Shown here: positions 42,401 to 45,400 of the stretch, piece after piece
Layout of the letters: each line of letters starts with the position of its first letter
Position numbering within the stretch: position 1 is the first letter of the stretch
Source: Escherichia coli
Lineage (GTDB): Bacteria; Pseudomonadota; Gammaproteobacteria; Enterobacterales; Enterobacteriaceae
Length of the DNA stretch: 64,000 nt
Strand: one strand, 5' to 3'
Assembly (NCBI RefSeq): GCF_024223415.1
Contig: NZ_CP100500.1
Position numbers: made by a program

Positions 42401-45400
42401 GTCAGGCTGCCAACGTATTGCCCGTCGCGCAGCACGCTGACGCGATCGGAAAGCTCATACACTTCCGCCATACGGTGGCTGATGTAGATAATCGCCATCC
42501 CTTCATCGCGCAGCCGCATAATCAGTTCAAACAGACGGTGAGTTTCACGGGAGGAGAGGGCAGCGGTGGGTTCGTCCATCACCAGAATGCGGCTGTTGCG
42601 ATGTAGTGCGCGGGCGATTTCGACCTGCTGTTGCTCGGCAATGGTCAGCGTCATGACCTTATCGCTGGCGTTAAACTGCGCGCCGAGGCGGTCGATCACT
42701 TTTTGCGCCTGCACTAGCATCTCTTTACGCTGCACCAGCCCGCCGTGGGAAAGCTCGCTGCCGAGAAAAATATTTTCTGCCACCGACAGATTCGGTGCCA
42801 GCTGCATCTCCTGATAAATCAGCGTAATACCGGCGCTTAAGGCATCTTTTGGCGTGCGAATGTGAAAGGGCTTGCCGTCTATGAGGATCTCGCCGCTGGT
42901 GGCGGTATACGCCCCCGCCAGCACCTTCATCAGCGTGCTTTTTCCCGCGCCGTTTTCCCCCATCAGGGCATGGATCTCGCCAGGGTAGACCGTCAAATCC
43001 ACCCCTTTGAGCGCATAAAATTTGCCGAAGGCTTTGGCAATATTGCGCATCTCCAGAACTGGCGTGCTGTTCATGGTGGACTCCTGCGAGGTTGTCGATA
43101 TCAGCACTCCATCACAGGAAAGTAAATGCAAAATGTCAGAAGCCGTTCATATTTGTCATATTGCGATTTTTCTTCACGGAGCGTGATATGGCGCACCCCG
43201 GACGTCATTTTTTTGCCAGCGCGCGCGGGCGATTGCTGCTTTTGAATTTGCTGGTGGTGGCGGTGACGTTGATGGTCAGCGGCGTGGCGGTAATGGGCTT
43301 TCGTCATGCCAGCCAGATGCAGGAGCTGGTGCAGCAGCAAACGGTGGATGATATGACCGGCAGCCTGAATCTGGCGCGCGACACGGCAAACGTGGCAACG
43401 GCGGCGGTGCGATTGTCGCAGGTGGTGGGAGCGCTGGAATATAAAGGCGAAGCCGAGCGGTTGCAGGAGACACAGCGGGCATTAAAAAGCTCGCTTGCAC
43501 AACTGGCGAACGCGCCTTTAGCGCAGCAGGAAGCCGGGCTGGTGACGCGCATCATCACGCGTAGCAACGAACTGCAAACCAGCGTCGGTGGAATGCTGGA
43601 GCGCGGGCAAAGGCGGCATCTGGAGCGCAACGCGCTGTTAAGTTCGCTGTATCAAAACTTAAGTTATCTGCGGCATCTGCAAAAAGTCACTCACGCGCAA
43701 GATGATATTTTGCTTAACGAGATGAACCGACTGATTGTTGCCGCTATTGCCACCCCCGCGCCGCAGGCGATTATTCATCAACTGGTCGGGGTAATGTCTG
43801 CGTTGCCGACCCACAGCGATACGCCGTTGGTTAACACGCTACTCAATGATTTTAATCGTGAACTGCGTAAACTCGCGCCGCTTTCAGCCGCTCTGGAGCA
43901 AAGCGATCTGGCAATCAGCTGGTATATGTTTCACATCAAAGCGCTGGTGGCGATCCTCAATGGCGACATCAACCGTTACGCCGAACAGGTGGCGACGCTC
44001 TCCGGTCAGCGCGTGGCGCAAAGTTACCAGGATTTGCGCTCCGGCGAGAGGCTGATCATGATTTTCGCCCTGTTAGCGGTGGTGATCACCGCGTTTGCAG
44101 GTTGGTATATCTATCGCAATCTCGGCTCTAACCTGACGGCGATTTCCAGCGCCATGAGCCGCCTGGCGCACGGTGAAGCGGATGTCAGCTTTCCGGCGTT
44201 ACAGCGGCGTGATGAGTTGGGTGAACTGGCGCGCGCCTTTAACGTTTTTGCCCGCAATACCGCGTCACTCGAACGAACGTCACGGCTGTTGAAAGAGAAA
44301 ACCATGCAGATGGAGATTGCCCAAACCGAGCGGCAGGGGCTGGAAGAGGCGCTATTGCACAGCCAGAAGCTGAAAGCGGTTGGGCAACTGACGGGCGGGC
44401 TGGCCCATGATTTTAATAATCTGCTGGCGGTGATTATTGGCAGCCTGGAGCTGGTGAATCCGGACTCGCCAGACGCGCCGCGAATACAGCGGGCGCTGCA
44501 AGCTGCCGAACGTGGGGCGCTACTGACACAACGACTGCTGGCGTTTTCCCGCAAGCAGTCCTTACATCCGCAAGCCGTTGAACTGAAAACATTGCTGGAA
44601 GAGTTAAGCGAATTAATGCGCCACTCCTTACCGGCAACGCTGGCGCTGGAGATTGAAGCGCAGTCTCCGGCGTGGCCCGCGTGGATTGACATCAGCCAAC
44701 TGGAAAATGCCATCATCAACCTGGTGATGAACGCCCGTGACGCGATGGAAGGGCAGACGGGAATCATCAAAATTCGTACCTGGAATCAGCGCGTTACTCG
44801 CAGCAGTGGGCAGCGTCAGGACATGGTGGCACTGGAGGTCATCGATCATGGCAGCGGTATGTCGCAGGCGGTGAAAAGCCAGGTATTTGAGCCATTCTTT
44901 ACCACCAAACAGACGGGCAGCGGCAGCGGGCTGGGTTTGTCGATGGTCTATGGTTTTGTGCGCCAGTCCGGTGGGCGCGTTGAAATTGAAAGCGCGCCGG
45001 GGCAGGGGACAACGGTCAGATTACAGCTTCCCCGCGCGCTGACGGCGGCGAAAAACCTATCGCCAGCGGCAGTAGAACAGGCTTCTGTCAGCGGCGATAA
45101 ACTGGTGTTAGTGCTGGAAGATGAAGCCGCGGTGCGCCAGACCATCTGCGAACAGTTGCACCTGCTGGGCTATTTGACGCTGGAAGCAAGCAGCGGCGAA
45201 CAGGCGCTGGATCTGCTGGCGGCATCAGCAGAAATCGATATTTTTATCAGCGATTTAATGCTCCCCGGCGGCATGAGCGGCGCAGAAGTGGTCAATGCGG
45301 CCCGCAAACTTTACCCGCACCTGACGCTGCTACTCATCAGCGGTCAGGATTTACGCCCCAGCCATAACCCCGCGCTGCCAGACGTGGCGCTGCTGCGCAA

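Follow-up and report, generated by a model that had tools for sequence, protein, structure and literature searches.

The locus raises the question of which regulator acts on the tandem decamers between two divergent transcription units, a sugar ABC transporter operon and a hybrid histidine kinase gene, and which of the two units it controls. By annotation and synteny, the window (the whole stretch of DNA analysed, 64,000 nt) was identified as the E. coli OI-167 island carrying lmvR/rbfR, lmuKAIZYX and lmvK/rbfS, in the order lmvR - lmuKAIZYX - lmvK and flanked by yjcS and yjdP, as in the published LmvR/RbfR locus. The flagged element is the LmvR operator that was already mapped experimentally in 2023. 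The preliminary description, made from the sequence only, thus correctly placed a real operator and was right in essence. Since the site, regulator, operon and inducing sugars have all been published, this adds little as a discovery, and most of the experiments which that description had proposed have been done in the published work.

The lmuX-lmvK intergenic region

The sugar ABC transporter ATPase gene lmuX (41554..43074, minus strand; PGAP, NCBIfam and Yang 2023) is the first gene of the lmuXYZIAK operon. The genes after it, assigned by annotation and NCBIfam, span 37012..41557 on the same strand and encode the permease LmuY (40583-41557), the binding protein LmuZ (39623-40564), the D-lyxose/D-mannose isomerase LmuI (38885-39568), the aldolase LmuA (38010-38870) and the kinase LmuK (37012-38013); their cotranscription was reported by Yang et al. 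2023 (PMC10128022). On the plus strand, lmvR/rbfR (Z5684, EDL933_5428; 36308..37015) encodes LmvR, the OmpR/PhoB-family response regulator acting at the site, and lmvK/rbfS (Z5692, EDL933_5436; 43188..45449) encodes a hybrid histidine kinase with TM, helical sensor, HAMP, HisKA, HATPase and REC regions. As previously described, the start of the ATPase gene (43074, minus strand) and that of the kinase gene (43188, plus strand) enclose 113 bp (43075-43187). Two open reading frames of 525 and 785 aa reaching into this interval were rejected as TTG-start extensions of lmuX and lmvK rather than real coding sequences; both the PGAP and the EDL933 annotations start these genes at 43074 and 43188. All 113 intergenic positions agree with O157:H7 EDL933, and the only two differences in a 351-bp comparison lie within the coding flanks.

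The three decamers were found where they had been placed (ATGTCAGAAG at 43133-43142, CCGTTCATAT at 43143-43152 and TTGTCATATT at 43153-43162), and the middle one agrees with the tor box CTGTTCATAT at 9 of 10 positions, a consensus verified against PMC9239176 and the K-12 torR-torC spacer. The claimed head-to-tail repeat with 10-bp phasing did not hold up: neighbouring decamers agree at just 3 of 10 bases in that register, decamers 1 and 3 each match the tor consensus at 4 of 10, and the runner-up tor-like match (7/10) is offset from the first by 9 bp, not 10 bp. Comparison with K-12 boxes 1-4 revealed no tandem tor boxes in a 10-bp or 21-22-bp register in the region. The 9/10 match is also not above chance when taken alone, with one found and 2.76 expected in 64 kb.

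A repeat finder identified a single direct repeat in the region, TCATATT at 43147-43153 and 43156-43162 with a spacing of 9 bp, which reads ATATGA-N3-ATATGA on the opposite strand; no inverted repeat was found within the site. This motif occurs once in the window, where 0.19 occurrences would be expected at up to 1 mismatch. On the lmuX (minus) strand, the two half-sites, ATATGA-CAA-ATATGA at 43147..43161, fall in decamers 2 and 3 and form the core of the published LmvR/RbfR footprint. Directly repeated half-sites separated by roughly one helical turn are a trait of OmpR/PhoB-type operators, and the two repeats of 6-7 bp here, 9 bp apart, show it. Half-sites in this family are usually spaced 10-11 bp apart, and the shorter spacing was counted against the operator model.

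Other elements were searched for in and around the region. No match to the 18-bp pho box CTGTCATAWAWCTGTCAY turned up in the window, even with 3 mismatches allowed, and an Rfam scan covering 42800-43500 (E up to 1) returned nothing, so an RNA element is not indicated. Readings of the conserved positions 43101-43132 as CRP, FNR, ArcA or CpxR-like sites, made by eye, gave no convincing match and were rejected.

LmvR binding, the lmuX promoter and conservation across genera

Published work on this exact sequence (PMC10128022) has confirmed the proposal that the response regulator encoded in the cluster occupies this site and switches on the transporter operon. In EMSA experiments, LmvR bound a 240-nt probe (Yang et al., mBio 2023, PMC10128022), whose primers map to 43066-43305 of the window, and binding was lost once the 22-nt site had been deleted from the probe. 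In DNase I footprinting, LmvR protected positions -41 to -62 relative to the lmuX transcription start mapped by 5'RACE, a stretch that contains ATATGA-N3-ATATGA, and the ChIP-seq summit at 5215274 in EDL933 showed 3.08-fold enrichment, the highest in Table 1 of the same study; this summit corresponds to window position 43143, 69 bp from the lmuX start. LmvR overexpression raised lmuX 695-fold and lmuY 408-fold, and deletion mutants of lmvR or lmvK grown on mannose showed lowered lmuKAIZYX expression by qPCR (PMC10128022).

Altogether, we consider it very likely that the element is the operator of the promoter of lmuX, which serves mannose/lyxose ABC transport and catabolism, and that it is bound by the island's own LmvR (= RbfR). 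The published experiments on the identical sequence show that, with mannose or lyxose available, LmvR is phosphorylated through the hybrid kinase LmvK (= RbfS) and binds ATATGA-N3-ATATGA, which lies at 43147-43161 on the minus strand. The centre of the site is some 51 bp upstream of where lmuX transcription starts, and its occupation activates lmuXYZIAK. LmvR is presumed to bind as a head-to-tail dimer with one monomer per half-site, and may recruit RNA polymerase to a weak promoter with CTGACA (in decamer 1) as -35 and TGTGAT as -10.

The positions of these promoter parts, as well as that of the exact transcription start, are deductions from the footprint coordinates. Given that the -41..-62 footprint contains 43147-43161, the 5'RACE-mapped start should fall within 43099..43106 (minus strand) and the 22-nt protected region, which contains the repeats, within an envelope of 43140..43168 (minus strand). 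The putative -10 hexamer TGTGAT would then lie at 43111..43116 (minus strand; last T 100% conserved), and the putative -35 hexamer CTGACA, 17 bp upstream of it and 92-100% conserved, at 43134..43139 (minus strand), just downstream of the -41 footprint edge. Decamer 1 falls outside the footprint; most likely it represents the lmuX -35 element. The conserved GTAAATGCAAA at 43122..43132 (82-100% identity per column, mean 0.92) lies within the presumed spacer between the hexamers and is also outside the footprint. A conserved Shine-Dalgarno sequence of lmuX, AGGAG, was read at 43081..43085 (minus strand). A sigma-70 promoter and terminator scan of 42950-43300 gave no match and no consensus promoter, as would be expected of an activator-dependent promoter.

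The cluster and its gene order are kept in at least 75 other Enterobacteriaceae species, and an invariant 16-mer, GTTCATATTTGTCATA (43145..43160, plus strand; one copy per locus, mean identity 0.99), forms the conserved operator core. Of 76 Enterobacteriaceae loci, 64 have it without a mismatch and the others with at most 3. Among 72 non-redundant sequences, identity falls from 0.99 over 43145-43160 to 0.40 over 43163-43187, and third codon positions of the neighbouring gene reach 0.57; the conserved blocks reach 0.94-0.99. The cross-species conservation of the 16-mer argues that the element is real and not a product of chance. The core is retained in Pantoea and another distant locus even though their kinases are only about 50% identical, and at each locus the site occurs together with lmvR/lmvK.

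The site stays with the operon more closely than with the kinase gene: the 16-mer lies 68-76 bp from the ATPase start and 27-3459 bp from the kinase start, the kinase gene being 90 to >3000 bp away in most other genera. In Buttiauxella, opposite-strand genes part the kinase gene from the site, which remains with the ABC operon. Conservation also runs about 25 bp past the footprint (43122-43146), which a one-dimer model alone does not explain.

About 8% of complete E. coli genomes carry the cluster, from varied hosts, and carrier strains with 100% matches include a healthy-student isolate and animal isolates; the strain of the window is not necessarily an EHEC. This distribution, together with the almost base-by-base conservation of the operator and of the whole cluster in dozens of enterobacterial genera, does not agree with the published view that the cluster was acquired as a virulence trait specific to EHEC, and suggests that its ancestral role is in sugar catabolism.

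The RbfR footprint on the ler promoter reported by Liu et al. 2022 is quite unlike this operator, which was counted against the operator model, and its similarity to the operator did not exceed that of shuffled sequence. Upstream of lmvR (36018-36307), the search for a second LmvR-type site gave just 3-4-mismatch matches in AT-rich DNA, and in other genera the lmvR upstream regions have a different motif in common and lack the 16-mer.

Possible control of lmvK and alternative readings

The preliminary description had assigned both divergent units to the regulator. The transporter half of this claim is established by the published data, and the kinase half is only hinted at by RNA-seq, in which LmvR overexpression lowered lmvK to 0.26x, a 4-fold decrease (padj 2.7e-16; Table S3 of PMC10128022), making it one of just two genes lowered in that experiment. 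The text of PMC10128022 does not comment on the decrease. If real, this overlooked repression would mean that the site works as a switch for both activation and repression.

It is plausible, although we would not favour it outright, that the site is a dual-purpose operator which activates lmuX and through which LmvR or the recruited polymerase represses divergent lmvK, as TorR does at torR. Besides the RNA-seq decrease, the geometry argues for this reading: the site is just 27 bp from the lmvK start codon, and therefore no lmvK promoter could fit without overlapping either that site or the promoter of lmuX. Upstream of the lmvK Shine-Dalgarno sequence, read as GGAG at 43178-43181 (plus strand), the only room for a promoter is 43133..43162 (plus strand), where a candidate core promoter, ATGTCA (43133-43138), an 18-bp spacer and CATATT (43157-43162), would overlap both the LmvR site and the lmuX promoter and is consistent with the decrease on overexpression. 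In E. coli, LmvR occupancy would probably hinder this divergent promoter, confined as it is to the same 60 bp. Against this, mannose or lyxose did not induce lmvK, which was unchanged in qPCR (PMC10128022), rbfS was reported to rise 3-fold with riboflavin, and overexpression of LmvR may produce non-physiological effects. The kinase gene is also distant from the site in most genera; any real effect on lmvK would therefore be confined to the layout seen in Escherichia/Citrobacter.

The model originally put forward, in which three or four 10-bp tor-like boxes are all bound by the regulator, with decamer 1 and the upstream GTAAATGCAA as extra half-sites, now appears unlikely. Such a model could draw on the ATGTCA of decamer 1 and 43122-43132, which are conserved as much as the footprinted part, and on the ChIP summit between decamers 1 and 2. 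OmpR-family regulators often come to occupy weaker sites in arrays as their concentration rises, which would also suit it. However, ChIP-seq resolution is too coarse for telling decamers apart, the published footprint ends at -41, upstream of decamer 1, and decamer 1 resembles neither the tor consensus nor decamer 2 beyond the agreement given above. Its reverse complement CTGACA is instead a 5/6 match to a -35 element at the right distance from the deduced transcription start.

Use of the site by TorR or another resident OmpR-family paralogue (PhoB, OmpR), instead of or besides the island regulator, is very improbable. In addition to the 9/10 tor-box match here, 18 of 72 orthologous promoters have a perfect CTGTTCATAT at this position, and the recognition helices of TorR and LmvR are near-identical (RTVDVLIRRLR against RTIDVLIMRLR). 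Nevertheless, LmvR binding and regulation have been demonstrated, and an lmvR deletion mutant loses induction despite the presence of torR (PMC10128022). A second tor box in 10-bp register and the pho box are both absent, and the site accompanies lmvR/lmvK at each of the loci. Finally, a chance AT-rich resemblance or a mere core promoter, as might be suggested by a single decamer match expected about 2.8 times per 64 kb and by parts of the block that resemble -35 and -10 elements, can be dismissed given that the 16-mer does not vary between genera whose flanks and synonymous sites have diverged, and that the published footprint, site-deletion EMSA and ChIP data already refute it.

Returning to the LmvR operator, a broader reading can be offered tentatively and with considerable doubt: the operator may activate the sugar operon and turn down the kinase via promoter overlap, a negative feedback in the Escherichia/Citrobacter layout suggested because lmvK falls in the published RNA-seq; the system may be an ancient Enterobacteriaceae-wide switch for the sugar operon and not something acquired by EHEC in particular; and the TorS-like sensor may read sugar via the operon's periplasmic binding protein, like TorS/TorT.

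Comparison with known regulatory systems

The LmvR site in the lmuX promoter of EDL933 (PMC10128022) is the same element, with the same intergenic sequence, repeat and flanking genes and no sequence difference. The published account does not mention that the site is conserved across genera, that it resembles a tor box or that lmvK decreases.

The tor boxes of torCAD, which serve TMAO respiration, are similar in that they too are direct repeats containing GTTCAT, lie between divergent genes and are the target of a regulator of the OmpR/PhoB family, and tor box 4 with its flank shares 11 bases, GTTCATATTTG, with the lmuX-lmvK site. The tor array differs in having four decamers in 10/11-bp register rather than two half-sites 9 bp apart, and its boxes are oriented towards torC while the LmvR repeats face away from the operon that is activated. 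Here it is the kinase gene, not the regulator gene, that is divergent, and the controlled genes serve sugar uptake rather than encode a TMAO reductase. Neither a TorR orthologue nor torCAD with TorS/TorT was found at the locus. The regulator, previously said to carry TorR-like motifs, is only 36% identical to TorR and is better described as a generic OmpR/PhoB-family protein composed of REC and winged-helix Trans_reg_C domains. Its NCBIfam TorR score of 163 compares with a cut-off of 275, and OmpR, VirG, PhoB and CreB score higher; the full-length matches are to OmpR (the highest), PhoB and others, with every score below its cut-off. Among solved structures, the DNA-binding domains of OmpR, RstA and PhoB match that of LmvR (E 1e-14 to 1e-10; OmpR closest), and the recognition-helix region of LmvR is 98% conserved among 59 orthologues.

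LmvK shares with TorS a helical sensor fold and differs in lacking an HPt domain. The sensor model matched the double four-helix-bundle sensors of TorS, PilJ and McpS with weak E-values of ~2e-3 (TM 0.70 on target and rmsd 4.9 A against TorS 3I9Y), and a sequence-profile search against the PDB gave no match at E up to 1.

PhoB at the pho box and OmpR at ompF/ompC resemble the present case in that a winged-helix regulator is taken to bind in head-to-tail fashion to direct repeats of the TGTCA/GTTCA type, which here would adjoin or overlap the putative -35 of a weak promoter. These prototypes keep the family's longer spacing, whereas the site here is centred near -51 and does not replace the -35. 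LmvR is also a dedicated pathway regulator and not a global one like PhoB and OmpR, and the locus has no pho box. The FusKR system of EHEC is likewise a horizontally acquired kinase/regulator pair that ties a mucus sugar to metabolism and LEE expression (PMC10128022, PMC11644481), but it belongs to another regulator family, responds to fucose and represses rather than activates.

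Published LmvR binding in the lmuX-lmvK spacer

The 113-bp spacer at 43075-43187 separates the sugar ABC ATPase gene lmuX (minus strand, start 43074) from the hybrid histidine kinase gene lmvK (plus strand, 43188-45449, start 43188). The OmpR/PhoB-family response regulator gene lmvR lies at 36308-37015 on the plus strand, and between it and lmvK a minus-strand operon encodes a sugar kinase, an aldolase, a D-lyxose/D-mannose isomerase, a periplasmic binding protein, a permease and the ATPase. The cluster, ordered regulator, operon, hybrid kinase and placed between yjcS and yjdP/phnP, is island OI-167 of O157:H7. 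For its two-component system, Liu et al. 2022 (PMC9860305) introduced the names RbfS/RbfR (Z5692/Z5684), and Yang et al. 2023 (PMC10128022) the names LmvK/LmvR, with lmuKAIZYX for the operon. The spacer is identical in sequence to that of O157:H7 EDL933; adding 5,172,131 to a window coordinate gives the EDL933 position.

Binding of the regulator in this spacer and activation of the transporter operon, both predicted in the preliminary description, have already been published (PMC10128022). A 240-nt probe, whose primers map to 43066-43305, was shifted by LmvR, and the shift was lost when a 22-nt site was removed. DNase I protection by LmvR covered -41 to -62 relative to the lmuX start and took in the repeat ATATGA-N3-ATATGA. 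The LmvR ChIP-seq summit at 5215274, with the top enrichment of that paper's Table 1, corresponds to window position 43143, 69 bp from the lmuX start, and LmvR overexpression raised lmuX 695-fold and lmuY 408-fold. The operon was inducible by mannose and lyxose, deletion of lmvR or lmvK lowered its expression on mannose, and the lmuX transcription start was determined by 5'RACE.

Three TorR-box-like decamers had been proposed at 43133-43142, 43143-43152 and 43153-43162. All are present in the sequence, and the second, CCGTTCATAT, matches the tor box CTGTTCATAT at 9 of 10 positions (consensus verified against PMC9239176 and the K-12 torR-torC spacer). The proposed 10-bp phasing did not hold: adjacent decamers have just 3 of 10 bases in common in that register, the first and third match the tor consensus at 4 of 10 positions each, and the next tor-like match (7 of 10) is offset 9 bp from the first. 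The single direct repeat called by the repeat finder was TCATATT (43147-43153 and 43156-43162, spacing 9), and 9-of-10 tor-box matches were not above chance in the 64 kb (1 found, 2.76 expected). The window's sole copy of ATATGA-N3-ATATGA spans minus-strand 43147-43161 and corresponds to decamers 2 and 3 viewed on the lmuX strand. As these two decamers are the published LmvR site, the literature already contains what was chiefly predicted, along with most of the proposed experiments; the feature is real and its core interpretation correct, but known.

Conservation and spread of the operator

The literature describes the island as EHEC-associated (O157:H7, O145:H28, O55:H7). Among 5426 complete E. 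coli genomes we found it (36308-45449) in 421. The hosts of these carriers vary, with a healthy student, pig, chicken, frog and baboon among the isolate sources, as well as fresh water. A same-order cluster is also carried by 75 or more further Enterobacteriaceae species, in Citrobacter, Enterobacter, Leclercia, Kosakonia, Raoultella, Buttiauxella, Cedecea, Atlantibacter, Pantoea and other genera.

Scanning one-genome-per-species assemblies for the kinase sensor domain gave 80 loci, nearly all of which keep the order regulator, catabolic/ABC operon, kinase. The 16-mer GTTCATATTTGTCATA (43145-43160), with one copy per locus, is unchanged in 64 of 76 loci, the window included, and the other loci depart from it at no more than 3 positions. 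Its distance to the ATPase start is 68-76 bp in every locus, while that to the kinase start ranges from 27 to 3459 bp, the variable side containing REP-like insertions and, in Buttiauxella, whole opposite-strand genes. Even where kinase identity drops to about 50%, in Pantoea and one further distant locus, the operator is kept. Averaged across 72 non-redundant sequences, identity with the base in the window was 0.99 for the 16-mer, 0.96 for the published repeat (43147-43161) and 0.94 for the whole block (43122-43160), against 0.40 for the flank (43163-43187) and 0.57 for third positions of the first 100 lmuX codons. In the "perfect" repeat, conservation of the distal A is only 49%; the conserved half-site is TATGA(C/A), and the spacer AAA/CAA is likewise invariant. 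The recognition-helix region of the regulator is 98% conserved among 59 orthologues, in accord with an invariant operator. The operator is part of the ABC-operon promoter and far older than the EHEC lineage.

Most genera except Escherichia, Citrobacter and Pseudescherichia carry an extra conserved segment, TATGAATAGTTAAC...GATCACA, past the operator (orthologous loci L015-L083; e.g., L024 9958-9990). It begins with an inverted tor-like box, CTATTCATA, that makes up a palindrome together with the proximal half-site. The window, with 27 bp from operator to kinase start, lacks this segment. In many genera (L017, L019, L023, L025, L034 and others), the stretch from operator to kinase gene contains inserted REP-like elements (…GGGAGAGGG…GGGTGAGGG…), with a long tandem array in L086 (9640-9990), a decayed copy adjoining phn, as in E. 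coli, that has lost its ABC genes and has a fragmented kinase. In Buttiauxella brennerae (L076 8579-9789), two minus-strand genes with 230-aa and 159-aa products, the latter possibly Hcp-like, separate the ABC operon from the kinase gene, which must therefore be driven there by a promoter of its own.

Promoter anatomy and control of the kinase gene

The 22-nt footprint has to include 43147-43161, so that the lmuX start has to fall in 43099-43106. The same arithmetic gives a putative minus-strand -10, TGTGAT (43116 to 43111), and, across a 17-bp spacer and directly downstream of the footprint edge, a putative -35, CTGACA (43139 to 43134). Since CTGACA is the reverse-complemented core of decamer 1, that decamer is most simply read as the lmuX -35 hexamer rather than a regulator box. 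A scan of the spacer region found no consensus sigma-70 promoter, as expected where a promoter depends on an activator. A moderately conserved palindrome, GATATC (cgaTatc; 43097-43102), lies about at the deduced start.

The segment GTAAATGCAAA (43122-43132) is 82-100% conserved across the 72 sequences and lies outside the footprint, in the presumed free -35/-10 spacer. It may be the upstream portion of the divergent lmvK promoter, weaker LmvR half-sites filled at higher protein concentration, or another factor's site. According to Yang et al., the LmvK/LmvR system requires oxygen.

The evidence on the suggested autoregulation of the kinase gene is mixed. With LmvR overexpression, lmvK (EDL933_5436) fell to 0.26x (log2 -1.95, padj 2.7e-16; Table S3, PMC10128022), one of only two down-regulated genes, neither discussed in the text of that paper. 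Just 27 bp separate the LmvR site from the lmvK start codon, so the lmvK promoter must overlap that site or the lmuX promoter; a candidate is ATGTCA-N18-CATATT (43133-43138 and 43157-43162). On the other side, lmvK was unchanged by mannose or lyxose in qPCR (PMC10128022), and riboflavin raised rbfS 3-fold (PMC9860305). Repression of lmvK by LmvR, direct or polymerase-mediated, is thus conceivable but somewhat doubtful; if real, it would be confined to the compact Escherichia/Citrobacter layout, not genera with a distant kinase gene. The remaining novelty is modest: deep conservation, spread beyond EHEC and this overlooked lmvK decrease.

LmvR autoregulation has been reported, despite no good ATATGA-N3-ATATGA copy upstream of lmvR (36018-36307). 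Other genera carry there, some 100-170 bp ahead of the start codon (e.g., L024, L026, L063), a conserved TGACGAAAA.CAG....TCGTCAAAATTGACGTGTCGA motif, with palindrome CGTCAAAATTGACG, and ATGTGAC; in E. coli AT-rich DNA replaces the motif and only AATGTGACC is kept. The reported ler promoter sites differ, with a footprint TCTCACATAATTTATATCATT (PMC9860305) versus a predicted ATTTTA-N3-ATTAGA (PMC10128022). Compared with the lmuX operator, the ler footprint gave 11 matches, a level that 1042 of 2000 shuffles also reached, so its similarity does not exceed that of shuffled sequence.

Comparison with the tor system

The resemblance to the tor system is real but shallow. One LmvR half-site is a 9-of-10 tor box, and a perfect CTGTTCATAT occupies the proximal half-site (equivalent to 43143-43152) in 18 of the 72 non-redundant orthologous promoters, making TorR cross-talk possible in those species. 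GTTCATATTTG is common to the LmvR site and tor box 4 plus flank, the recognition helices of LmvR and TorR are near-identical, and both proteins end in AADV. The LmvK periplasmic domain (43188-44222) is predicted to form a long all-helical double bundle, and its model (pLDDT 80) matches the TorS sensor fold (3I9Y; TM-score 0.70 on target, rmsd 4.9 A, probability 1.0, weak E-value 1.8e-3), although PilJ and McpS match about as well. The TorS sensor signals via the binding protein TorT. By analogy, LmuZ, the RbsB-like binding protein encoded in the operon, could be a co-sensor for LmvK, whose sugar-sensing mechanism is addressed in neither PMC9860305 nor PMC10128022.

In contrast, LmvR is only 36% identical to TorR overall, scores higher for OmpR, VirG, PhoB and CreB than for TorR in NCBIfam while falling under every equivalog cut-off, and has OmpR as the closest solved structure to its DNA-binding domain. 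Its half-sites are spaced 9 bp, not 10 bp, the repeats face away from the activated operon, LmvK is without an HPt domain, and no sequence-level PDB relative of its sensor was found. The element acts like an OmpR/PhoB-family direct-repeat operator and is no member of the tor system.
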